Both the position numbers and the translations under genes were made by a program. Of a stretch of DNA of 42,351 bases, positions 6,530-37,005 are shown piece by piece (positions within the stretch are counted from its first letter, which is position 1; every line of letters starts with the position of its first letter). Origin of the DNA: Escherichia phage vB_EcoM-ep3; sequence record NC_025430.1; one strand, written 5' to 3'. A model generated the notes under the pieces. It was not told where the DNA came from. It saw nothing but the letters and a program-made list of their open reading frames with translations, and made no database searches.

Positions 6530-6932
6530 CAAAGAACACGCGTTGCAGAACGCAATCCGCAACGCACTGGCGGGTCGCTGCCTGCTGTTTCGCGCCAACG
6601 TGGGCAAGGCGTACACCAGCAATGACGTGGTGAAGGTGCCGCGCCAGATGCCGGTTGTGATGGGGCCGCGTGACGTGCTGCTGAAAAACGCCAGGCCGTT
6701 TGACACCGGGCTGCCGCCAGGGTTTTCCGACCTGTTCGGCCTGGTCAGTGTAGAAATCACACCTGACATGGTGGGGCAGAAAGTGGCCATCTTCACCGGC
6801 CTGGAAGTCAAAGACGGTGCCCGCGTGTCACCATTGCAGCGAAACTTCATCAACGCGGTGAACGACAACGGGGGCCGCGCCGGTGTTGTGCGGTCAGTGG
6901 ATGACGCTGAAAAACTGGTGTTCGGAAAATGA
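6522..6932 (+). CDS. VRR-NUC domain nuclease
   Basis: Start trimmed to MANKEHALQNAIRNALAG; conserved-looking GFSDLFG...EVKDGARVSPLQRNFINAV region resembles VRR-NUC (PD-(D/E)XK) proteins. Confidence 0.7.
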   Translation: MANKEHALQNAIRNALAGRCLLFRANVGKAYTSNDVVKVPRQMPVVMGPRDVLLKNARPFDTGLPPGFSDLFGLVSVEITPDMVGQKVAIFTGLEVKDGARVSPLQRNFINAVNDNGGRAGVVRSVDDAEKLVFGK

Positions 6933-10567: not shown

Positions 10568-11545
10568 ATGGGTAGCATTGTGAATAAATACGAATTGCAT
10601 TTAGGTGATTGCCTGGAAGTTATGAAGTCTATTCCAGCCGGTAGCGTTGATTTGGTTCTGTGTGATCCGCCGTATGGCACCGCTGGCGGAATGGGAAAGG
10701 GTGAAGAACGCTATTCACGAATTGCGAACGCTGAATGGGATAACGCTATTTCTCCGCAGGCCATTTTTGAAGAATGCAACCGCGTTTTGCGAACTAACGG
10801 CGCTCTTATTCTGTTCAGCCAGGAACCTTACACCAGCAAGTTAATCACAGCGGCGCATGGAAATCTGCCTTTCAGTTATCGACTAATGTGGCTGAAAGAC
10901 CATTTCTCTAACTCGCTGTTGGTAAATAAAGCGCCTGTTTCATACTTTGAAGATTTAGTGGTGTTCTTCAAGAAATATGACACGCTGGCACAGCATCCGC
11001 TAAGGGATTATGCCAAAAAAATCATGGAATACATTGGCAGAAATATAAAGCAGATAAACACTGATTTAGGTCACAGGCGCGCGGAACACTTTTTTTATGT
11101 TGAATCAACGCAGTTCGGGCTGTGTACTGAAAAGACATACAACCAGATTATTGCGCACTATGGGCTTAGTGTGTGTGACTGGCTTATGACTTATGCTGAA
11201 ATGTTAGAAATTGACCGCAGGTTTGCCCGCAGGTTTAACCTGGCGGATGGTGCAAAATACAAATCTAACGTTCTTCAGTACAAAAAGGATTATACCGGCC
11301 TTCACCCAACACAGAAGCCGGTAGCACTGCTGGCTGACATCATCAGGACATATTCAAACCCTGGCGAAACGGTTCTAGATTTCACTATGGGGAGCGGGTC
11401 AACAGGAGTCGCCTGCATCAATGAAGGCCGTAACTTCATAGGAATTGAACTTGATGAAACCTATTTCCAGACAGCGCAGGGGCGCATAATGGAAGCAGCA
11501 GCCGCAAACGATAACCAGGCAAGTAGCAATTCTGTTGTAGCATAA
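10568..11545 (+). CDS. DNA methyltransferase (N6-adenine/N4-cytosine, beta-class)
   Basis: 325 aa; motif IV LCDPPYGT precedes motif I LDFTMGSGSTG (beta-class order); AT-rich relative to neighbours; no cognate restriction enzyme gene nearby. Confidence 0.85.
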   Translation: MGSIVNKYELHLGDCLEVMKSIPAGSVDLVLCDPPYGTAGGMGKGEERYSRIANAEWDNAISPQAIFEECNRVLRTNGALILFSQEPYTSKLITAAHGNLPFSYRLMWLKDHFSNSLLVNKAPVSYFEDLVVFFKKYDTLAQHPLRDYAKKIMEYIGRNIKQINTDLGHRRAEHFFYVESTQFGLCTEKTYNQIIAHYGLSVCDWLMTYAEMLEIDRRFARRFNLADGAKYKSNVLQYKKDYTGLHPTQKPVALLADIIRTYSNPGETVLDFTMGSGSTGVACINEGRNFIGIELDETYFQTAQGRIMEAAAANDNQASSNSVVA

Positions 11546-11592: not shown

Positions 11593-12420
11593 ATGAAACA
11601 AGTAACGATTGACAACGTGCGCGAGCGCATAGCGGAACTGGAAATGGTCAACAGCCACGGTGAACTGTCACTGCGCGGCGAATTTGAACTGGCGTGTTTG
11701 CGGATGCTGGCCGATTCAATGGGCGGCGTTGATGATGACGTGCGCAACGTGGTGGCCCTGCTGGAAAACAACGAATGGGCCGAGCACTGCACTAAAACAG
11801 AGCTTGGCCAGCGCCTGGAAAGCGAAATAACCCGCCTGGTTGGGGACGTGCAGCCAGTGCCGGTGGTAAGCGATGCTGACCCATCACTAAACGCCATGAT
11901 GCGTGCGCTTGATGCGTTCTATGCTGATGACTATGTGCCGGAACGTGCCATGCTGGCAGCTTTCAGAATCCTGCTGGCGGATGTGCGTGAAAAGCCAGCG
12001 CCGGTGGTAACTGATGATAGGCTGCTGGAAAACCTTGAAACGCGCATCAAAAGCCTGGAAATCGGTGAACGCAAAGGCGCATTGAGCACGCATCAGGAAA
12101 TCAGCCTTAAGGCGTATCGCCTGACTGTCCAGTGTCTGCGTTCGTCTGCCATCAGTGATGAAACAGACAACACCGCGCAGCAGTTCGAATCGTTGGCTGG
12201 CATCAATGCGAACAAACATCATGACCAGTGGGTGAATTGCAGCGAAAGGCTTCCAGATCGCTTCCGTGACGTTCCTGTGATGCTTTCTGATGGTTCCCAG
12301 CGAGTTGGGCGCATCAATCATAAAGATACCTGGCTGATTGCCAGTTACCACCATACAAAGCACCAATATACAGGCGACGTTGTTATGTGGTTCGACACGC
12401 CTAATCCCACCAGCGAGTGA
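11593..12420 (+). CDS. DUF551-like domain protein
   Basis: 275 aa; GAGG RBS; C-terminal WVNCSERLPD...VMWFDTPNP resembles the DUF551 pattern found at the C-terminus of many lambdoid early proteins. Confidence 0.55.
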   Translation: MKQVTIDNVRERIAELEMVNSHGELSLRGEFELACLRMLADSMGGVDDDVRNVVALLENNEWAEHCTKTELGQRLESEITRLVGDVQPVPVVSDADPSLNAMMRALDAFYADDYVPERAMLAAFRILLADVREKPAPVVTDDRLLENLETRIKSLEIGERKGALSTHQEISLKAYRLTVQCLRSSAISDETDNTAQQFESLAGINANKHHDQWVNCSERLPDRFRDVPVMLSDGSQRVGRINHKDTWLIASYHHTKHQYTGDVVMWFDTPNPTSE

Positions 12421-12431
12421 AGCGGCAAGCC

Positions 12432-12749
12432 ATGAGCCTGGCAACCGATATTCTGTGGCGCGCTTTTGTTAAGCAGGCGAAACAGAAGCCAACGCCAAAA
12501 TCCGCACCAGTGGAGGCAAAACCAAAACCGGAAGTCACGGCAATCAGCAACCGCAACCTGCACCTGGCGCGCGTCCCTGGCTGTCAGCGTCTGGCTTGGG
12601 GTTGGCAGGTTACGTGCATTGATGGCAAGCAGAAACACAAACTGGGAACCTTCAAAACAATGCCACGCGCACGCATAGCATGGCGACTTTGGCACCTGTG
12701 GAAGCGCCGGGGTTTTGCCGACATCCCAACCGGACCAAACCACGCCTAA
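12432..12749 (+). CDS. hypothetical basic protein
   Basis: Trimmed to ATG 12432 (MSLATDILW); lysine/proline-rich N-terminal half; followed by a terminator. Confidence 0.45.
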   Translation: MSLATDILWRAFVKQAKQKPTPKSAPVEAKPKPEVTAISNRNLHLARVPGCQRLAWGWQVTCIDGKQKHKLGTFKTMPRARIAWRLWHLWKRRGFADIPTGPNHA

Positions 12750-12756
12750 ACACTAA

Positions 12757-12776
12757 CCGCCTTCGGGCGGTTTTTT
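12757..12776 (+). terminator. intrinsic terminator
   Basis: CCGCC-TTCG-GGCGG hairpin followed by TTTTTT (12771-12776). Confidence 0.8.
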
Positions 12777-12838
12777 ATTGCGCAAAAGATGACAAGTATG
12801 ACAAAATAACAACGTCACCAATAACAGAGGAATTCATC

Positions 12839-13120
12839 ATGATTGAACAAAAGCTAGACCGCATCATTGAACTGCTGGAAATCATCGCGGAAGCACAACC
12901 GAAACCGCGCGTTAGTCGTAGTCAAATCAGTGATGCAAAGAGCATTATCGTTTCGCACCGAGAACAACTGAGAGGAAAGCGCATCACGTTTGGTGAATTC
13001 TGTGAAATCATTGGCGTGGAGAATTCAAAGCAAAACCGATTAAAGTTTGGTGCTGCAATGACTGAGGCTGGAGTCAAACAATACAGAACAAAAAACGCAC
13101 GTTATTATTTATTTGCATGA
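12839..13120 (+). CDS. hypothetical protein (AT-rich cargo gene)
   Basis: Trimmed to ATG 12839 (MIEQKLDRIIELLEI) with AGAGGA 8 nt upstream; the longer ORF-track version would read through the upstream terminator; terminators on both sides. Confidence 0.5.
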   Translation: MIEQKLDRIIELLEIIAEAQPKPRVSRSQISDAKSIIVSHREQLRGKRITFGEFCEIIGVENSKQNRLKFGAAMTEAGVKQYRTKNARYYLFA

Positions 13121-13140
13121 TTACTTTTATCTATTGATAC

Positions 13141-13164
13141 AGCGCCTTAATGGCGCTTTTTTTG
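13141..13164 (+). terminator. intrinsic terminator
   Basis: AGCGCC-TTAAT-GGCGCT hairpin followed by TTTTTTTGTTT. Confidence 0.8.
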
Positions 13165-13185
13165 TTTATGAGCGACTCAATAAAA

Positions 13186-13449
13186 AAGTTGGTCACCGTA
13201 GTCACCTGGTAGTCACCGCTTAAACCAATGATATATATACGAAATGACCAAGTGACCAAGGGAGACAAGGAAATAAAAGATTTTAAAAGGTGACAAAAGC
13301 ATTGAGCGCATTAGTACCTAACAGCAACTTTATGAAAACATGGTCGAGTTGGTCACCAAGCCCATAAAAACGGCGCTTTTTCCTTAAAAATCAAGGTGAC
13401 CGAGAAAAACACCGCTTGTCTCCCTGTAGTCACCTATTTCTGGTCACCG
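13186..13449. repeat. iteron array: about 10 copies of GGTCACC/GTCACC core in both orientations (candidate replication origin)
   Basis: Copies at 13191-13197, 13201-13206, 13212-13217 (tandem GTAGTCACC), 13245-13260 (TGACCAAG x2), 13289-13294, 13351-13357 (within palindrome TTGGTCACCAA), 13395-13401, 13429-13434, 13442-13448, with an AT-rich stretch at 13221-13240; no ORF. Confidence 0.7.
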
Positions 13450-22427: not shown

Positions 22428-22730
22428 ATGTCTGGTACTTATGTACTGAAATTGACTTCCGCTATTGCTATCAGCGGCGAAGTCATGAAAGCGGGTTCAC
22501 TGGTTGAGGTTTCAGAGCTTGAGGCTAAAAACCTGTTGTCGCGCGGCAAGGCAGAGATGCACGACGAACAACCAGCACGTGATGACGATGTTGAAATCAC
22601 GAAAATGAACAAAGATCAGCTTATCGCTATTGCAGAGCAGATGGAAATTGAAGGCGCTGACAAGATGACCAAAGCGCAGTTGATTGAAGCCATCGAAGCC
22701 GCAGGCGAAATCAAAGAGGGTGACGAATAA
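22428..22730 (+). CDS. hypothetical head-associated protein
   Basis: 100 aa; strong AGGAGA RBS; acidic with a C-terminal helical motif (KMNKDQLIAIAEQMEIEGADKMTKAQLIEAIEA). Confidence 0.5.
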   Translation: MSGTYVLKLTSAIAISGEVMKAGSLVEVSELEAKNLLSRGKAEMHDEQPARDDDVEITKMNKDQLIAIAEQMEIEGADKMTKAQLIEAIEAAGEIKEGDE

Positions 22731-27059: not shown

Positions 27060-29303
27060 GTGGAACTGAAAACATACTTCGCCCAAGACAGAAACGGAAA
27101 CCTTATTCCATCTGCTACAGTGTCAATTTTTTTGTCTGGCACATCAACCTTAGCCACAGGATTAAAGACCGTTAGCGGCGCTAATCTTACCAATCCTTTC
27201 ACCGCAGGTTCTGACGGTAAAATACAGTTTTACGCTCCAGACGGAATTTATGACATGCAGGTATCACTAGGCAGCGTTGACGGAGTTAAAGTTACGTTTC
27301 AATGTATCGATGTTCAACAGCAACTTAGCGAAGCAAGCAGCGCCGCAGATCGCGCAGAGGCTGCGGCTGAATCCATAGAATCGCAGTCCGCTAACATCGA
27401 ATCAAACAGCCGTGAACAATGGCGCAGATCGCTGGCAGATGCAGGAATAACGCTTGTTAACGGTAGCTTTGAGGCGGGGGCGACAGTCAGTAACGCTTCT
27501 GAAGCTGTCTGGCATATTGCTGGTGGTCAGTGCTACACCTGGGGCGGAGTGATGCCGAAAGTAGTAACAGAAGGTTCAACACCTTCCGAAACAGGTGGCG
27601 TTTCCCCTGGAGCCTGGACTAGCGTTGGTAATAAATCCTTTAGCCAAATCCTGGCATCAAACAAGGGAATGAATCTAATCGGTGACGTTGATTCTGTAGC
27701 TCAGTTAGCATCTGTTTCTGGCGCATCTGTTGGCGATAAGATACTTGTCAGATCATACATCGCCGGTTCTAATAAAGGTGGTGGCACATTTGTTGCAGTT
27801 GAAAACACTGAAACGCCTGATGGCGTGGTAGTATTTGACGGCGTAGGTGTTAAATGGCGGAGACTTTTCTTTGCTGGTGAGGTAAATGTATTTGACGCCG
27901 GATATACGGGAAGCGGCGACATTGCTGTTTACATCAATAAAGTGAATTCCGCAGGATACGATTGTTTTATTCCATGTTCCGGTGCGTTTTCTTCCGCAAT
28001 AGAAATTGATTTCAGCAAAGGAAGTGTAAGAGGCGCAAACAAATGCACACTTACAGAAATTGAAGGAATTCCAGGTGATTATGCGTTGAAGCTTTTCAAC
28101 TCAAACACCGATTATGCTGACCGAGATTCAATTAACGCAAACGCCATATTGGATGGGGTCGCATTTCAGTTTTCTGGAACAAAAAAAATTGCGCTTGGCG
28201 GAGCGGGAACGGGTGAACTATCTGAATTGCGGATAAGTAACTTTGGTTTCATATCTTCTGCTGGATTAGAGTTTCTTGACAACTCTTACCGGATTATTTT
28301 CGATAAAGGCGCTATTTCACGCAGCTTTAATGACACACTCATATTTAATTCACCTGCGAACTCAGGAGAAGTGATTAACTTCAATCATTGCTGGATGGTA
28401 GACAATGGCGGGCCATTAAAATTCAAAAATGGGCAGTTTATATTTAATGGTTGCTCAATGCCTGCCGGGAAGAAGGCAGGATATTTTGACCCAAACATAA
28501 TATTGGAGGACAACGCAACAGTTGTTTACGCAAATGGCAACATTGAATTTCAACCAGGTCAAAGTTTTGTTGCATTTGTGGTTGGCGGCAGTTCCAGATT
28601 GAGTATTAAAGATTCAACGCTGCTAACTCCATCTGGATATTCAGCTATACCAATCGTTGCAAATGATGATGCGGTCGTCTCGCTAACAAACTGTTCGCTT
28701 CCTCTATATGAGCAAACAGAGATTGCCGCTGGTGCTGCTGCGCGTCAAATTATTGGTGGGAACAGTAAGAAAGTAATGTCTTATGGTTGTTATCCCAGGG
28801 CTGGTTTTATAACAGCAAATTGGGATAAAGGTAACATTGTTAGTGCTTACATAAACTCATTGTCGAATGGCAGTGGACAATTTTTAAACTATTCAAACTG
28901 GAGTTTAATGCAAACCGGAAGCGGTGTTGTTACGGCAGGTACTGATACTGACGTACCAAATACAATCATGTTTTCAAGATCGCTATACGTAACTGTCCCT
29001 TCCGTTGGTGCGACAGCAGATTTCTACCAAGACTGCCTTGACTGTTCACCTGGCCGCTATTTTCAACTTGGGTTTTGGGCAAAGAACGCTGTGACATCAC
29101 TGGCATCAATTGAATTCTTTGATAAAGAGGGCAACAGCGTTCAAGGGAAAATACCTTTTAATATACCTTCTGTGAATGCTTGGGGATTCTATGCGCTCGT
29201 AGACATTGTTCCGCCTGGTGCAAGTAAAGCAAGGGTTAACTTTGCAGTTTCTGGTGAAGTAGGTACACTGCATATTCATAACGCTATTTATGGCTTGATT
29301 TAA
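27060..29303 (+). CDS. tailspike-like receptor-binding protein (possible depolymerase)
   Basis: 747 aa; GTG start; markedly AT-rich; Gly/Ser/Asn/Thr-rich repetitive composition suggestive of beta-helix tailspikes; inserted between gpI and the gpH-like fibre. Confidence 0.6.
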   Translation: MELKTYFAQDRNGNLIPSATVSIFLSGTSTLATGLKTVSGANLTNPFTAGSDGKIQFYAPDGIYDMQVSLGSVDGVKVTFQCIDVQQQLSEASSAADRAEAAAESIESQSANIESNSREQWRRSLADAGITLVNGSFEAGATVSNASEAVWHIAGGQCYTWGGVMPKVVTEGSTPSETGGVSPGAWTSVGNKSFSQILASNKGMNLIGDVDSVAQLASVSGASVGDKILVRSYIAGSNKGGGTFVAVENTETPDGVVVFDGVGVKWRRLFFAGEVNVFDAGYTGSGDIAVYINKVNSAGYDCFIPCSGAFSSAIEIDFSKGSVRGANKCTLTEIEGIPGDYALKLFNSNTDYADRDSINANAILDGVAFQFSGTKKIALGGAGTGELSELRISNFGFISSAGLEFLDNSYRIIFDKGAISRSFNDTLIFNSPANSGEVINFNHCWMVDNGGPLKFKNGQFIFNGCSMPAGKKAGYFDPNIILEDNATVVYANGNIEFQPGQSFVAFVVGGSSRLSIKDSTLLTPSGYSAIPIVANDDAVVSLTNCSLPLYEQTEIAAGAAARQIIGGNSKKVMSYGCYPRAGFITANWDKGNIVSAYINSLSNGSGQFLNYSNWSLMQTGSGVVTAGTDTDVPNTIMFSRSLYVTVPSVGATADFYQDCLDCSPGRYFQLGFWAKNAVTSLASIEFFDKEGNSVQGKIPFNIPSVNAWGFYALVDIVPPGASKARVNFAVSGEVGTLHIHNAIYGLI

Positions 29304-29310
29304 CAAACAA

Positions 29311-29326
29311 CCCCACTTCGGTGGGG
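29311..29326 (+). terminator. weak terminator-like hairpin
   Basis: CCCCAC-TTCG-GTGGGG, 8 nt after the tailspike stop; followed by AT-rich sequence rather than a clean T-run. Confidence 0.35.
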
Positions 29327-29356
29327 TAGCAAATTTTAAAATTGAGGCCAAACACA

Positions 29357-31493: not shown

Positions 31494-32921
31494 ATGGCAG
31501 GTACTGATTTTTTACATGGCGTGGAGGTGCTGGAAATTGATTCCGGTTCACGCGTCATTCAAACCGTTAAATCAAGCGTCATCGGTATTGTTGGCACCGC
31601 GCCAAATGCTGACCCTGACGCATTCCCGCTAAACACCCCAACCCTGATTGCAGGCAGCCAGCGCGAAGCGGCCAAACTGGACATGCTTGGCACCGGTGAA
31701 GGCACCCTTCCCAAAGCACTGGATGCCATCCTGGACCAGATCGGCGCTGTGGTCATCGTTGTGCGTGTTGAAGAAGGCGAAAACGAAGCCGCAACGCTGG
31801 CCAACATCATGGGTGGAGTTAACGCATCAACCGGCAAATATGAAGGCGTTCACGCACTGCTTGGCGCTGAATCCGTTGTGGGCTACTCGCCGCGCATTCT
31901 GTGCGTTCCCGGCTTCACGCATACCCGCGTTCAGGATGGCGTCACCGCTATCACCATCGGCAACGGCGGCAGCGGTTACACCGAAGCGCCTACGGTCACC
32001 CTGGCTGGTGGCGGCGGTGGTTCTGGCGCAACTGCGCAAGCAACCGTGGTTGGTGGCGTCATCACCAAAATCATCGTCACCAACGCTGGCATGGGTTACA
32101 CCAAAGCGCCAACCGTCACCATCACTGGCGGCAACGGCACCGGCGCAACTGCAACCGCATCCGTTGGTATCGCAGCCAATGCCGTGGTTTCTGAACTGCT
32201 TGGCATCGCCAACCGCCTGCGTGCTGTCATCATCGCTGACGGTCCAAACACCAACGACGCTGACGCCATCGCCTACCGCAAAGACTTTGGCAGCAAGCGC
32301 GTTTATGTGGTTGACCCAAAAGTGCTGGTGCTTGACGAGGATGGCACCACGATTACTGACTGGGCATCGCCGCGCGTGGCTGGACTGATTGCCCGCATCG
32401 ACAACGAGCGCGGTTTCTGGTGGTCACCATCAAACCAGGAAATCTATGGCATCCAGGGCACGGCCAGAACCATTGATTTCACCCTGGGTGACACGTCCAG
32501 CCGTGCAAACCTGCTGAACGAAAACGAAGTCACCACCATCATTCGCCAGGACGGTTTCCGCCTGTGGGGCAACCGCACCACTTCCAGCGATCCGAAATGG
32601 GCGTTTCTGTGCGTTGTTCGCACGGCTGACATCATCAATGACAGCCTGTTGCGTGCACACCTGTGGGCCGTAGACCGTGGCATCACCAAACAATACGTCA
32701 ATGACGTGATTGAAGGCGTGAACGCGTACCTGCGCAACCTGGTGAGCCTGGGCGCAATTCTTGGCGGCACGTGTTGGGCTGACCCTGACTTAAATACTGC
32801 TGACCAAATCGCTGACGGTAAGGTATACTTTGATTTTGATTTCACGCCTGTTTATCCGGCTGAACACATTATCTTCCGCAGCCAATTGACCAACGATTAT
32901 ATTAGTGAGGTATTCGAATAA
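31494..32921 (+). CDS. tail sheath protein (P2 FI-like)
   Basis: 475 aa; N-terminus [20 protein letters not shown] and C-terminal [14 protein letters not shown]...CWADPD follow the P2 FI pattern; carries an internal Gly-rich tandem-repeat insertion. Confidence 0.9.
31941..32170 (+). repeat. internal tandem repeat within the sheath gene
   Basis: Two about 105-bp units encoding [25 protein letters not shown] and [24 protein letters not shown]; similarity visible at the nucleotide level. Confidence 0.6.
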
Positions 32922-33427
32922 TGGCCGCACGTGACGTTTTGAAAAACATCAACTTATTTGTTGATGGCCGTGGTTACGCGGGCCAGGTGGAGAGCGTCAC
33001 GCCGCCCACCTTAACCCTGCAAACCGAAGAATTCCGCGCAGGCGGCATGGATGCGCCCATTGATGTGACGTTGGGCATGGAAAAGCTGGAAGCCAGCTTT
33101 GCGCTGCGTGCTTATGATTCTGACGTGCTGGCGCTGTTTGGCCTGTCAGAAGGTGCAAGCGTTCCGCTGACGTTTCGCGGTGCGCTAGAATCCTATGACG
33201 GCAGCGTGAAAGCCGTTGTCATGAACATGCGCGGCAAAATCACCAGCATGGAGCCAGGCACCTGGACGCCTGGGGAACTGAGTTCCCTTAACGTCACTGT
33301 CAGCCTGAACTATTTCAAGCAGCAGCATAACGGAAAGACCATCCACGAAATCGACGTGGAAAACATGGTGCGCATCATCAACGGTGTAGACACCCTGGCA
33401 GCCATCCGTTCTGCGCTGGCGCTGTAA
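32921..33427 (+). CDS. tail tube protein (P2 FII-like)
   Basis: 168 aa; directly follows the sheath with stop/start overlap; size and position match FII. Confidence 0.88.
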   Translation: MAARDVLKNINLFVDGRGYAGQVESVTPPTLTLQTEEFRAGGMDAPIDVTLGMEKLEASFALRAYDSDVLALFGLSEGASVPLTFRGALESYDGSVKAVVMNMRGKITSMEPGTWTPGELSSLNVTVSLNYFKQQHNGKTIHEIDVENMVRIINGVDTLAAIRSALAL

Positions 33428-33434
33428 TTTTTAC

Positions 33435-33459
33435 GGCCAGTCATTTGGCTGGCCATTTT
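33435..33459 (+). terminator. weak terminator/attenuator after the tube gene
   Basis: GGCCAG-N8-CTGGCC hairpin followed by ATTTTC. Confidence 0.35.
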
Positions 33460-33487
33460 CAACAATCATTGTTTGAGGCGATAAGAA

Positions 33488-33772
33488 ATGGCTAAATTAC
33501 CTGATTATCTGAAATTCAACCACGAAACCGGCCACTGTGACATCACCCTGTCACGACCGCTGAAAATCGCAGGCGTTGACGTTTCCGTGCTGCGTATGCG
33601 CGAACCAACCGTGGCTGACCAGGAAATTGCAAGCGACATGGGCGGCAGCGATGCTGCGCGCGAAATACAGACGTTTGCCAACCTGTGTGAACAGGCACCT
33701 GATGACATCCGCCGCCTGCCGCTGAAAGATTACAAGCGTTTGCAATCCGCTTACATCAGTTTTTTAGATTAA
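33488..33772 (+). CDS. tail assembly chaperone (P2 gpE-like), zero-frame product
   Basis: 94 aa; sits between tube and tape-measure as in P2 E; ends just after a TTTTTTA slippery heptamer. Confidence 0.75.
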   Translation: MAKLPDYLKFNHETGHCDITLSRPLKIAGVDVSVLRMREPTVADQEIASDMGGSDAAREIQTFANLCEQAPDDIRRLPLKDYKRLQSAYISFLD

Positions 33773-33903
33773 GCCCGGAATACATACGTGCGGGCGCTTT
33801 GGCGCTCGCAAGTCATACGGGCTGGCAGTTATCGGAAATTCAAAGGTTGCGGGTTTCCCGTTTTGTGTGGTGGTTGGAAGGATTGCCGAAGGCTAACAGC
33901 TAA
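33488..33903 (+). CDS. tail assembly chaperone frameshift-extended product (E+E'-like)
   Basis: After a -1 slip the reading frame stays open for 45 more codons (RLSPEYIRAGALALASHTGWQLSEIQRLRVSRFVWWLEGLPKANS) to TAA at 33901-33903. Confidence 0.5.
33760..33795 (+). other. programmed -1 frameshift site: slippery heptamer plus downstream stem-loop
   Basis: T_TTT_TTA at 33760-33766 in the chaperone zero frame, 6-nt spacer, then stem-loop GCCCG-N13-CGGGC (33773-33795). Confidence 0.55.
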
Positions 33904-33974
33904 AACAATTGAAGGTAAAGTAAATATGCGTGTATCATTATAAATAACTTTAAGTAATTTAGTGGTGGTGCACG

Positions 33975-34658
33975 ATGAAGAAAGTAACCAAGAGTGAGGC
34001 GATAGAGCAAGGGCTTAATTATTACTTTACTGGTAAGCCATGTAAGCATGGGCACGTCAGCGAAAGGTATATAAAAGGCGGAGCTTGCGTGGCTTGCCAG
34101 AGAATTAAAAGCAAAGAGTTCAGTAAAAACAATGTTGAATCAGAAAGGATTAGGAAGCATCTAGATTATCTTGCGCACAAGGAAGAAAGGAACGAGAGAA
34201 ATAAATCTTGGCAAAAAAGAAACAGGGCAAAAGTCTCAGAGTATGTTGCAAAATGGAGGAAAAAAAACAGGGAGAAGGTGAACGAAATGGCCGCTGAGTT
34301 AAGGCGCAAAAACCCAGAAAAGCAAAAAGAGGCTGACAGGAGATGGAGAGCAAAAAACAAACACAAGGTGGCCAAGAAAGACGGTCTTAAAAGGGCAGCA
34401 AAACTGGCAAGAATTCCAGTTTGGTTTGGTGAATTTGATGATTTTGTGATTCAGGAAGCGCACACGCTGGCAGCGTTAAGAGGTGATGAAACCGGAATAC
34501 CCTGGCACGTTGACCACATGTTGCCAATGAGGGGGAGAAAAATTTCCGGGTTACACTGCGCGCATAATATCCAGGTGATTCCGGCAGCCATGAATGTGAG
34601 AAAAATCAACAAAATGGTTTTGACCAACCCACTAGAGTGGTTACGCGATGGCGTCTAA
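33975..34658 (+). CDS. HNH endonuclease (free-standing, homing-type)
   Basis: 227 aa; N-terminal Cys/His cluster (CKHGH...CVACQ), C-terminal HNH-like motif WHVDHMLP...LHCAHNIQVIPAAMNVRK; lysine-rich middle; AT-rich; inserted between chaperone and tape-measure. Confidence 0.65.
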   Translation: MKKVTKSEAIEQGLNYYFTGKPCKHGHVSERYIKGGACVACQRIKSKEFSKNNVESERIRKHLDYLAHKEERNERNKSWQKRNRAKVSEYVAKWRKKNREKVNEMAAELRRKNPEKQKEADRRWRAKNKHKVAKKDGLKRAAKLARIPVWFGEFDDFVIQEAHTLAALRGDETGIPWHVDHMLPMRGRKISGLHCAHNIQVIPAAMNVRKINKMVLTNPLEWLRDGV

Positions 34659-37005
34659 CAAGAAATTATCTGCAACAATAGTAATTGGCGGTGCCGTATC
34701 CAGCAGCCTGAAAGGCGCATTCAGCACCGTCAAATCTTCCGTTGACCAGGTTGGCGCAGCAATGGCCAAACTGGAACGCGAGCAACGACAACTAACCAAC
34801 GCCATCCAGACGTTTGGCCGCCAGGGCAAAAACGTTGATTCACTGCGCGCCAAGTACGCCGCCAACGTTTCTGCGGTGGACAAACTGCGCGCAGCCACCG
34901 AACGCCTGAAACGCGTGGAGGATGCCCGCGAACGCAACCTGGCGAAGCGCGACCAATACAAAGATGGGATCATGGGCACCATTGCCCTGGGTGCCACTAT
35001 CGCCGCGCCAATCAAAGCCGCGATGGATTTTGAAAGCACCGTTGCCGACATCAAAAAGGTAGTGGATGCGCCGAAGGGTGCCGACGAAGATACTTTCTTC
35101 AAAGCCATCAGCAAACAGGTTTTGGATATGTCCAAAACCCTGCCGATGACGGCCAACGAAATTGGCCGCATCTTTGCGCTTGGCGGCCAGTCTGGCATCG
35201 CAGCCGAAGATTTGGGCAAGTTCACAGAATCAGCCGTAAAAATGGGCGTGGCGTTTGATGTCAGCGCGGAACAGGCTGGCCAGTCAATGGCGGAACTGCG
35301 TTCTGCTTTCGGCATGACGCAAGACCAGGTGAACACGCTGGCCGACCAGATGAACTACCTGGACAACAACGGCAGCGCCGCAGCAAAAGATATTCTGGAA
35401 ATCGTCCAGCGCGTTGGGCCGCTTGGCAAGGTTGCTGGCACTGCTGCCGGTCAGATCGCCGCGATGGCATCAACACTGCGCGGCATGGGTGTGCAGAATG
35501 AAGTTGCCGCAACCGGCATTCAAAACTTCATGCTGGCGCTCACTGCTGGTGATGCTGCCACGAAGTCACAGAGGGCGGCCCTTGCCGAATTAGGCTACGG
35601 TTCACGCGAAGTGGCGAAGTCAATGCAGTTGGATGCGCAAAAAACCATGACGGTGATTCTGAAACAAATCAGAAAACTACCGAAGTGGAAACAGGCGTCA
35701 GCACTAACTGATTTATTCGGCAAAGAGTCGATTAAGGCCATCGCACCACTGCTGGATCAGCTTGAACAGCTTGAAGATAACTTCGCAAAGGTAGCCGACA
35801 AATCGAAGTATGCCGGTTCCATGCAGAAAGAATTTGAAGCGCGCGCGGCCACCACAGCAAACCAGCTTATTTTGTTCCGTAACCAGATCACCGGCCTGGG
35901 CGTCACGATTGGTTCAGTCCTGCTTCCTGCGGTCAACAGCGTCCTGCAAACCGTTGGGCCGTGGATTGGCAAAATCACTGAACTGGCTGACGCGCACCCG
36001 GTTGTCACCAAAGCCATTGTGGCCACGGCTGGCGCACTAATTACCATGCGCATTGCCACGTTTGCGGCTGGCTTCGCTTTCACGTACCTGCGCGGCGGCG
36101 CGCTGCGTGTTGTGGGTGCCCTGGCTGGTGCCCGCGCACAGATGGCACTGACGGCGGTTTCCGCGCGTGCAGTGGGTGCCGCAGCTACCGTGGCCAACGG
36201 CGGCCTGGTGGGCATGGCATCACGTGGAATCCCTGCCGTTGTTACTGGCGTGCGCGCCATCGGTGCGGCGTTCATTTCCACCGGCATTGGTGCCCTGATT
36301 ACCGGCCTGGCGCTTGGCGGCCTGTGGATTTACCGCAATTGGGCTGGCGTCAAAGCGTTCATGACCGGCACTTTGCAGGGCATCCAGCAAGGGTTGCAGC
36401 CTGTTACGGAGAAATTCCAGGCGCTGTGGGATAAGTTAGGACCAGTCAAAACCGCTTTCCAGTGGGTTGCTGACGCTGCTGGCAAGGCGTGGGATTGGTT
36501 CACCAAACTGGCCGAACCGGTGAGCTACAGCGGCGAAGAACTGAAAAAGGCCGGTGACGCTGGCCAGCAGTTCGGCAAGGCGCTGGCGGCAGGTATTGAT
36601 TTTGTGTTGGGGCCGATTCAGTTCCTGATTGATAAGATCATTTGGGTTTCTGACAACATTGGCGCGCTGACGCAAAAAGCCGTTGAGTTCAAAAACAGCG
36701 TTTCTGACATGGCTGGTGGTGCCTGGCAGAAAACGAAAGACTTTTTCAGCAACCCGTTTGGCGATGACGCGCCGCAGGGCAACGCGCTGACGACGCCGCA
36801 GACACCGGCCAGCGCATTGCCAGCGCCTGCCCTGGCGAACCGTGGCGGCAGTACATACACCGACAGCAGCACAACCACCATTCAGGTGACGCAGCGCCCT
36901 GGTGAGAACAACGCAGACCTGGCCAAACGCATTGCCGACGAACAGGAGCGCCGACGCCAAGTGCGCCAGCGCAGCATGATGAATGACGGAGTGACGGCAC
37001 CATGA
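34648..37005 (+). CDS. tail tape measure protein
   Basis: 785 aa; Ala/Gly-rich, long helical composition; position between chaperone and gpU. Confidence 0.9.
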   Translation: MASNKKLSATIVIGGAVSSSLKGAFSTVKSSVDQVGAAMAKLEREQRQLTNAIQTFGRQGKNVDSLRAKYAANVSAVDKLRAATERLKRVEDARERNLAKRDQYKDGIMGTIALGATIAAPIKAAMDFESTVADIKKVVDAPKGADEDTFFKAISKQVLDMSKTLPMTANEIGRIFALGGQSGIAAEDLGKFTESAVKMGVAFDVSAEQAGQSMAELRSAFGMTQDQVNTLADQMNYLDNNGSAAAKDILEIVQRVGPLGKVAGTAAGQIAAMASTLRGMGVQNEVAATGIQNFMLALTAGDAATKSQRAALAELGYGSREVAKSMQLDAQKTMTVILKQIRKLPKWKQASALTDLFGKESIKAIAPLLDQLEQLEDNFAKVADKSKYAGSMQKEFEARAATTANQLILFRNQITGLGVTIGSVLLPAVNSVLQTVGPWIGKITELADAHPVVTKAIVATAGALITMRIATFAAGFAFTYLRGGALRVVGALAGARAQMALTAVSARAVGAAATVANGGLVGMASRGIPAVVTGVRAIGAAFISTGIGALITGLALGGLWIYRNWAGVKAFMTGTLQGIQQGLQPVTEKFQALWDKLGPVKTAFQWVADAAGKAWDWFTKLAEPVSYSGEELKKAGDAGQQFGKALAAGIDFVLGPIQFLIDKIIWVSDNIGALTQKAVEFKNSVSDMAGGAWQKTKDFFSNPFGDDAPQGNALTTPQTPASALPAPALANRGGSTYTDSSTTTIQVTQRPGENNADLAKRIADEQERRRQVRQRSMMNDGVTAP

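Follow-up and report, generated by a model that had tools for sequence, protein, structure and literature searches.

A probable free-standing HNH-superfamily homing endonuclease gene at the chaperone/tape-measure junction of Escherichia phage vB_EcoM-ep3

The tail operon of Escherichia phage vB_EcoM-ep3 (sequence record NC_025430.1) carries an AT-rich gene between the genes for the tail assembly chaperone and the tape-measure protein, and the question raised by this locus is what the gene encodes and how it came to stand at a junction that is closed in related phages. The whole stretch of DNA analysed, 42,351 nucleotides (nt) in length, is referred to here as the window; it is approximately the complete genome of a Jilinvirus-type (Iiscvirinae) myophage of E. 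coli with a P2-like tail module. An earlier sequence-only reading had proposed a free-standing HNH endonuclease gene that interrupts the junction as a mobile, homing-type insertion. The comparisons described below support that proposal, and the preferred explanation, held at a probability of about 0.78, is that a free-standing HNH-superfamily homing endonuclease gene (HEG) invaded the chaperone/tape-measure junction. Cleavage and homing by the window protein are inferred from sequence comparison. The parts of the inserted segment are as follows.

33904..34647, plus strand: insert lacking in relatives, 744 bp, 42.3% G+C, delimited by alignments and by two-piece megablast matches
33904..33974, plus strand: AT-rich spacer, 29.6% G+C, with a Shine-Dalgarno-like GGTGGTG at 33964-33970
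33975..34658, plus strand: putative homing endonuclease gene, 227 amino acids, intact open reading frame (ORF), PHROG 1035 (E = 1e-18)
34648..34658, plus strand: 11-nt overlap of the nuclease gene (stop codon 34656-34658) with the start of the tape-measure gene (ATG at 34648)

The insert fills exactly the gap between the stop codon of the chaperone's frameshift extension (33901-33903) and the ATG of the tape-measure gene (34648). The interval 33904-34658, which had been assigned to the gene, begins at the true left edge of the insert, since 33904 is the first base after the extension stop; it is not the start of the ORF, because 33904..34658 spans 755 nt, which is no multiple of 3, and the ORF occupies 33975..34658. 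The GGTGGTG motif lies 4 nt before the nuclease ATG. The 11-bp overlap with the tape-measure start had been noted correctly to the base. The AT-richness was borne out as well: G+C content is 43.7% in the ORF and 42.3% in the insert (z = -2.3; 3.6th percentile of equal-sized windows) vs. 53.3% in the window, and falls to 29.6% in the 71-nt spacer (33904-33974), a contrast that is real, if not unique. The chaperone ORF (with its frameshift extension) and the tape-measure ORF are both intact. No terminal inverted repeats or target-site duplication were found around the insert, and no Rfam intron family matched 33400-35000. A transposon or insertion sequence was rejected for lack of such repeats and duplication, and an intron-encoded HEG was rejected for lack of an Rfam match and because the flanking ORFs are uninterrupted; the description of the gene as free-standing thus holds.

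The closest records, at 86-93% nt identity, are Alux-21, Salmonella phage PT1, HeidiAbel_Bas97, vB_EcoM_ECO1230-10 and ECOO78. When positions 33000-35600 were compared by megablast, five close relatives gave two-piece matches with approximately 750 bp missing between the pieces. In four of these (PT1, HeidiAbel_Bas97, ECO1230-10 and ECOO78) the junction reads TAAATG, the stop of the chaperone extension abutting the tape-measure ATG with no scar; the fifth, ET-SD-TH, has an equal deficit of ~750 bp. The insert had no nt match in the whole genomes of ECO1230-10 and PT1, nor in 5,426 E. coli genomes searched by megablast for a source. Distant relatives were taken from IMG/VR with the chaperone protein as the query (38 sequences; both genes were locatable in 37, which had 32-96% chaperone identity). 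In 37 of the 37 informative relatives the distance from chaperone stop to tape-measure start was 118-211 nt, corresponding to the frameshift extension only, and none had a member of the nuclease family at the junction. Because all 37 keep the compact junction without a family member, that arrangement is ancestral. The insert is an addition to an ancestrally compact junction, and its insertion point, located between TAA and ATG by comparison with the insert-free relatives as the sequence-only reading had suggested, is exact to the nucleotide. The gene is clearly not conserved in all relatives with matching composition, which favours a mobile element.

Two other genomes are occupied at the identical spot, by diverged alleles with 74% and ~40% amino acid identity to the window protein. 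The first is L006, a 43.5-kb Logan contig with the 74%-identical allele and a 60-nt spacer; the second is Alux-21, which encodes a 205-residue homolog (40-44% identity). Proteins 97% and 74% identical to the window nuclease exist elsewhere. In Alux-21 the nuclease ATG is the ATG of the ancestral TAAATG (L001 2405-2410), so that the Alux-21 nuclease appears to take over the coupling position held by the tape-measure gene in the empty-site phages. The 11-nt overlap with the tape-measure gene recurs in 3/3 alleles (the window, Alux-21 at L001 3015-3025, and L006 at 6671-6681). As a separate observation, the nuclease stop codon is formed from different sequences, TCTAAC in the window and AAATAAG in Alux-21.

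Identification of the product relied on profile comparisons. Against PHROGs the whole protein matched phrog_1035 (E = 1e-18), which bears the label 'endonuclease VII', and the first 51 residues matched phrog_1081. Among 5.8 billion proteins searched, 48 relatives were found, and the family alignment comprised 43 sequences, in which R31, C38, C41, D180, H181, G192, N198, N207 and K210 are invariant. The most distant near-full-length relatives (25-30% identity) pass the Pfam cut-offs for HNH (PF01844) and HNH_5 (PF14279); PF01844 matched 10 of the 43 family members, and the other 33 failed at E <= 0.1. The C-terminal domains of the Cys-less subfamily, to which the window protein belongs, were compared with those of the Pfam-HNH-positive subgroup using hhalign; the C-terminal domains alone were used so that any link would run through the nuclease domain and not through shared N-terminal parts. 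The two were matched at a probability of 97.2% (E = 4.1e-11), with D180-H181, N198 and N207-x-x-K210 in register with the PF01844-positive members. The only coherent matches of the family profile among PDB sequences were HNH domains of Cas9, IscB-like proteins and ZRANB3 (E = 1e-3 to 0.1), the D-H of the nuclease aligning with the D-H of the Cas9 HNH domains. The CxxC...CxxC structural zinc site, common among HNH domains though not present in all, has no Cys in the window subfamily, and C21, C26, C58 and C61 are invariant in the Pfam-positive relatives.

34410..34655, plus strand: HNH (beta-beta-alpha-metal) nuclease domain, residues 146-227, assigned by hhalign, invariant columns and topology in both models

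The C-terminal HNH-like motif recognised earlier reads W-H-V-D180-H181...G192-L-H...N198...N207-x-x-K210, with the D180-H181 codons at 34512-34517, and its D180, H181, G192, N198, N207 and K210 are among the invariant columns. The AlphaFold2 models were confident, with a pLDDT (predicted local distance difference test) score of 94 for the full-length protein and of 92 for the domain alone, and contained a strand-strand-helix unit at residues 177-210. Fold searches with the whole and the domain-only models were non-significant, with HNH nucleases heading the lists (best Foldseek match, the NmeCas9 HNH domain, E = 0.37); colicin E7 could be aligned to the model at 2.4-2.8 Å over ~35 columns. Since the fold searches missed significance, the HNH assignment rests on profile-profile homology, not on fold. 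By that homology the protein is classed as a member of the HNH superfamily, as a Cys-less H-N-N variant (D180-H181, N198, N207). Membership in the T4 endonuclease VII family (PF02945) was rejected: the protein had no match, and 3/43 members matched weakly (best E = 2.5e-5). As judged by these matches, 'endonuclease VII' is an annotation label of PHROG 1035 and not a sign of PF02945 membership.

The remainder of the protein consists of two further parts.

34017..34103, plus strand: Cys/His module at the N-terminus, residues 15-43, YYFTGKPCKHGH...CxxC, which may bind zinc and recognise DNA
34164..34409, plus strand: basic helical repeat region, residues 64-145, 35% Lys+Arg, recognised by repeat register and model helices

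The N-terminal Cys/His cluster, another element of the sequence-only reading, was confirmed as C23-K-H25-G-H27...C38-x-x-C41, with C38 and C41 invariant and C23 nearly so in the 43 family members. The module was modelled by AlphaFold2 as a beta-hairpin, is duplicated in 7/43 homologs, and also stands alone as PHROG 1081. Within the basic region, four clear units of 15 residues (W/L-R/Q-x-x-N-x-x-K...) start at residues 79, 94, 109 and 124. The units were built in the model as consecutive helices of ~14 residues, with four or five basic helices overall; in the DNA, direct repeats lie 45 and 90 nt apart in this region, and the number of units varies among homologs. The Cys/His module and the helical repeats would serve as modular DNA-binding elements; other phage HEGs have been described with comparable modular DNA-binding parts (PMC10448857). 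The ratio of nonsynonymous to synonymous substitution rates (dN/dS) between the window and L006 alleles was 0.23, which indicates purifying selection on the nuclease gene. Identity to the Alux-21 allele was 38% for residues 1-50, 19% for residues 51-145 and 65% for residues 146-227; the nuclease part thus appears conserved, and the presumed DNA-reading part does not.

The DNA on both sides of the insert was compared with PT1, to which the backbone is 98-99% identical.

33730..33899, plus strand: upstream divergent tract, a putative co-conversion tract, with 44 mismatches in 170 nt vs. PT1 (15 in the preceding 1230 nt)
34648..34746, plus strand: recoded tape-measure 5' tract, with 24 differences from PT1 in ~94 nt including a 3-nt insertion, followed by ~2% divergence

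Differences from PT1 amounted to ~26% at 33730-33899 and ~25% at 34653-34746, vs. ~1.2% at 32500-33729 and ~2% at 34747-35200. The divergent patch (33730..34746, ~1 kb) is discrete and centred on the insert, and its position within a near-identical PT1 backbone therefore indicates a recent exchange. The N-terminus of the tape-measure protein is recoded, reading MASNKKLSATIVI... in the window vs. MANKKLNATITI..., and the 3-nt insertion gives MASNKK in place of the MANKK of PT1. The recoded tract is common to L006 (93% over the first 100 nt) and is not shared by Alux-21 and the empty-site phages, in which it is 71-75% identical to the window. Alux-21 has a private tract upstream, where the last 100 nt are 49-54% identical to each of the other genomes; beyond it, identity is 95-100%. 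The recoded tape-measure tract, tied to the window/L006 nuclease lineage, may be a self-immune allele of the target or a tract of co-conversion. Homing with co-conversion would produce flanks of this pattern, and so would the linkage of each nuclease lineage to a target allele that resists cleavage; the flanks also suggest that the two nuclease lineages read opposite sides of the junction.

The nuclease gene itself is mosaic. Between the window and L006, amino acid identity was 62% for residues 1-145 and 95% for residues 146-227, and on this difference the common history of the gene's 3' half and the adjoining 5' end of the tape-measure gene is more recent than that of the 5' half. At the nt level (33888-34687), identity to L006 was 42-80% in the 5' half of the nuclease gene and 82-100% in the 3' half and the tape-measure start. 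These nt values imply a recombination breakpoint inside the nuclease gene, at ~34290-34390.

PHROG 1035 is the sequence family to which the protein actually belongs; members from Foxunavirus, Jerseyvirus and Drulisvirus are 36-41% identical over 95-100% of the length. Homologs were found by tblastn in 291 phage records (Klebsiella, Salmonella, Vibrio, Xanthomonas, Ralstonia and others), at up to 4 copies per record, and no second family copy was found in the window. Their neighbours include terS, primase, baseplate and other genes, as well as a Mu-F-like head gene and SSB. One member adjoins SSB in a Jilinvirus-like ENA contig (L050 4001-4744), and another lies ~3 kb downstream of the chaperone gene in an IMG/VR contig (L043 6890-7273). 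When the family profile was run against 1.84 billion representatives, 10,809 clusters (50% identity) were matched at E <= 1e-30. Family proteins reach 541 residues with up to 7 matched stretches, and most members have no Pfam domain. The labels used across the family in GenBank are 'endonuclease VII', 'glycolate dehydrogenase', 'hypothetical protein' and 'HNH endonuclease'. No experimental study of any PHROG 1035 member was found in the literature.

Under the homing explanation, the nuclease gene would be expressed together with the tail operon, late in infection. During mixed infection, the N-terminal modules would bind the empty junction of a related phage, and the protein would nick or cut there. 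The target for the window lineage would probably lie in the opening 50-100 nt of the tape-measure gene, the part recoded in the carrier. Recombinational repair off the carrier would then copy the gene and adjacent flanks into the recipient. The 11-nt overlap may keep the essential tape-measure gene translated by coupling, a role that the TAAATG link with the chaperone would have had ancestrally, and such coupling would make the insertion near neutral for the host phage.

Several results weigh against this explanation or parts of it. A Pfam scan of the 227-residue protein gave nothing at E <= 1, NCBIfam gave no relevant match, and phmmer against PDB sequences gave no match. Low G+C is not unique to the insert, there being five or six other low-G+C patches in the window. 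A weak promoter-like site is present in the spacer (33909-33938; 9/12 consensus positions), and such matches in the spacer were not above shuffled expectation; no claim is made for a promoter of its own, a 9/12 site being no better than chance. The placement of the target in the recoded tape-measure 5' end is tentative, being drawn from three occupied genomes. Mosaic patches without any HEG exist too, so that divergence of a flank is not in itself proof of homing: midway along the tape-measure gene (~35050-35850), identity to some relatives falls to 52-75% between flanks of 95-100%. Such HEG-independent exchange would also suit an accessory nuclease that benefits the phage, through marker exclusion, degradation of host or rival DNA, or counter-defence, and that was moved by ordinary illegitimate or homologous recombination rather than through cleavage of its own target. 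In favour of this account, the gene is intact and purifying selection acts on it, it has the same orientation as an essential late gene to which it is linked in translation, and marker exclusion by phage HNH genes has been reported in Skunavirus (PMC12724721). This account is nevertheless considered unlikely. Three diverged alleles at the identical nucleotide junction, each with a private flank tract, are what target-directed insertion predicts and are hard to obtain by random recombination; moreover, unrelated phages carry the family in several copies and at several sites, and five isolated lytic relatives manage without the gene.

That the gene is a dead or decaying remnant, or encodes a DNA-binding or regulatory protein only, would accord with the lack of a direct Pfam HNH match, the missing CxxC...CxxC zinc site of classical HNH domains and the weak structural matches. 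It is made very unlikely by the catalytic columns (D-H, N and N-x-x-K), which are invariant in 43 members, by the dN/dS of 0.23, by the nuclease domain being the best-conserved part (95% identical to the L006 allele and 65% to that of Alux-21), and by the full-length ORF, of which a 97%-identical copy exists elsewhere. Little credence is given to a reversed polarity, in which the gene is ancestral, was precisely deleted in the relatives, and is not currently mobile. HEG life cycles do include loss, polarity for each lineage is not readable within the Jilinvirus group alone, and the alleles in the three occupied genomes differ greatly in age (74% and ~40% identity); however, the junction is compact in all 37 informative distant relatives, the empty genomes have a scarless TAAATG, the G+C content of the insert is 11 points below that of the backbone, and the patch lies within a backbone 98-99% identical to PT1, indicating recent exchange. 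Finally, a packaging-associated HNH factor that aids terminase (of the HK97 gp74, GVE2 or HrdP type) is hardly credible: the gene lies among the tail genes, a long way from those for terminase, and is absent from the viable close relatives ECO1230-10, PT1, Bas97 and ECOO78, the window holding no second family copy, while packaging HNH genes are kept at a constant place throughout a phage group (PMC12724721). The homing explanation accommodates the absence of the gene from 5 close and 37 distant relatives, the alleles at the same site, the flank patch and the multi-site family, and the mobile, homing-type insertion proposed from the sequence alone is supported to that extent.

The gene may be compared with several known systems. 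Free-standing HEGs of T-even phages include mobA-E and the seg genes, for example MobE between nrdA and nrdB. Like these, the window gene is intergenic between conserved essential genes, sporadic among close relatives, in neither an intron nor an intein, AT-rich relative to the backbone, and apparently inherited with co-converted flanks. Unlike these, it is found in a P2-like, Jilinvirus-type myovirus at the chaperone/tape-measure junction; the mob genes belong to another HNH sequence family with other DNA-binding modules, and the searches made here yielded no match to them in sequence or structure. In I-HmuI, the nuclease domain is N-terminal and the NUMOD and helix-turn-helix DNA-binding parts are C-terminal. 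The window protein resembles the H-N-N nicking enzymes of the I-HmuI type in its Cys-less core, in the replacement of the last His by Asn, and in the combination of modular DNA-binding parts with a nuclease domain. It differs in that the order of domains is reversed and the DNA-binding part would consist of a zinc-type module and 15-residue helical repeats. I-HmuI was not present among the PDB sequence or fold-search matches, and membership in an I-HmuI-like family was rejected on the reversed domain order and the lack of a sequence or fold match, only the Cys-less H-N-N chemistry being in common.

Phage HEGs cluster beside essential structural genes, chaperone and tape-measure genes included, and mark recombination boundaries (PMC10448857). 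As with the HEGs of vibriophage ICP1 (IPA-HNH and T5orf172 types; PMC10448857), the window gene is beside essential structural genes and at the boundary of a divergent or recombinant patch, and it shares with them repeated zinc-finger-type DNA-binding modules of varying copy number and domain-level mosaicism between alleles. The nuclease families and DNA-binding domains of the ICP1 genes differ (AP2, CapR, DUF723), and the tape-measure HEG of ICP1 is intron-associated, whereas the window gene is free-standing. In lactococcal Skunavirus, free-standing HNH genes occupy variable sites (PMC12724721), and these genes, with their variable genome positions and presumed homing or marker exclusion, also resemble the present case. 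Unlike the window protein, the zinc-ribbon HNH nicking enzymes by cos and terminase (PMC3592412), GVE2 and HK97 gp74 keep a [CxxC]2 site, adjoin terminase and are conserved in their group; the window protein is without a [CxxC]2 site, encoded in the tail operon, and dispensable. Its tail-operon position and its absence from ECO1230-10, PT1, Bas97 and ECOO78 led to rejection of membership in the packaging HNH enzymes.

The genes around the insert were assigned as follows.

33488..33772, plus strand: tail assembly chaperone gene (P2 gpE-like), upstream neighbour; Pfam PF10109 Phage_TAC_7, E = 1.3e-17; PHROG 166 'tail protein'
33760..33766, plus strand: slippery heptamer T_TTT_TTA, for a -1 frameshift to the extended chaperone, in X_XXY_YYZ register in the chaperone frame
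33766..33903, plus strand: -1 frame extension of the chaperone (E'-like), an open frame ending ...LPKANS*, whose stop (33901-33903) is the left boundary of the insert
34648..37005, plus strand: tape-measure gene, downstream neighbour; Pfam PF10145 PhageMin_Tail, E = 1.3e-38

The order of the tail genes is sheath (31494..32921), tube (32921..33427), tail chaperone, nuclease ORF and tape-measure, followed by homologs of gpU, gpX and gpD. The open -1 frame after the heptamer is as would be expected for a frameshift product of the P2 E/E' type, and the extension is kept at the protein level in Alux-21 and L006. Two heptamers occur at one place in the chaperone gene (33760-33766 in the window, ~2260-2270 in L002, L003 and L005), T_TTT_TTA in the window, ECO1230-10 and Alux-21 and A_AAT_TTT in PT1, HeidiAbel and ECOO78; both are canonical, and the phages are near-identical. 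The frameshift product is annotated in none of the GenBank records compared.

Elsewhere in the window, ORF 22428-22727 is a homolog (94% identity) of ECOPH_gp26, which is labelled 'endonuclease VII' in RefSeq and Alux-21. A paralogous relation of its product to the nuclease studied here was rejected: it has 100 residues, is acidic, is without the Cys/His motif, and is unrelated. The label looks like an annotation error, given an acidic product with no Cys or His motif. Segment 10529-11592 is window-specific (45% G+C), with no nt match in ECO1230-10, Alux-21 or PT1, and contains ORF 10568..11545, which encodes a 325-residue N6/N4 DNA methylase (PF01555, E = 2e-30); the gene probably has an accessory role in anti-restriction. 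Further window-specific segments are 11877-12406 and 12792-13428 (the latter 40% G+C), candidates for morons or more mobile genes; the ORFs there are 11593..12420, with a weak DUF551 match, and 12680..13120, neither being assigned a function by match. In the tail-fibre/tail-spike region, 1.8 kb (27549-29356; 42% G+C) had no nt match in ECO1230-10, Alux-21 or PT1 and is probably a host-range cassette swap.

On its own, the finding is routine, as free-standing HNH genes abound in phage genomes. The locus is a clean natural experiment, with an exact site, culturable empty-site phages (PT1, Bas97 and ECO1230-10) and three alleles with private tracts, and the target site, self-immunity and co-conversion are directly testable in an E. 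coli system. From its sequence relationships, the window gene would be an ordinary selfish homing gene of PHROG 1035, a very large and abundant phage family without a Pfam name. A bolder proposal is offered tentatively, and with more doubt than confidence: that the protein represents an unnamed class of Cys-less H-N-N homing nucleases (>10,000 clusters, no Pfam model), in which a CHGH...CxxC zinc module and a variable number of 15-residue 'W-R-x-x-N-x-E-K' basic helices may form a modular, possibly repeat-coded DNA reader, and that two lineages compete for one insertion point, the window/L006 lineage reading the tape-measure 5' end on one side and the Alux-21 lineage the chaperone extension on the other. 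The family also exposes an annotation gap, more than 10,000 clusters being invisible to Pfam and variously labelled in GenBank. The start and stop arrangement at the junction shows how a selfish gene can enter a tightly coupled structural operon without breaking it.

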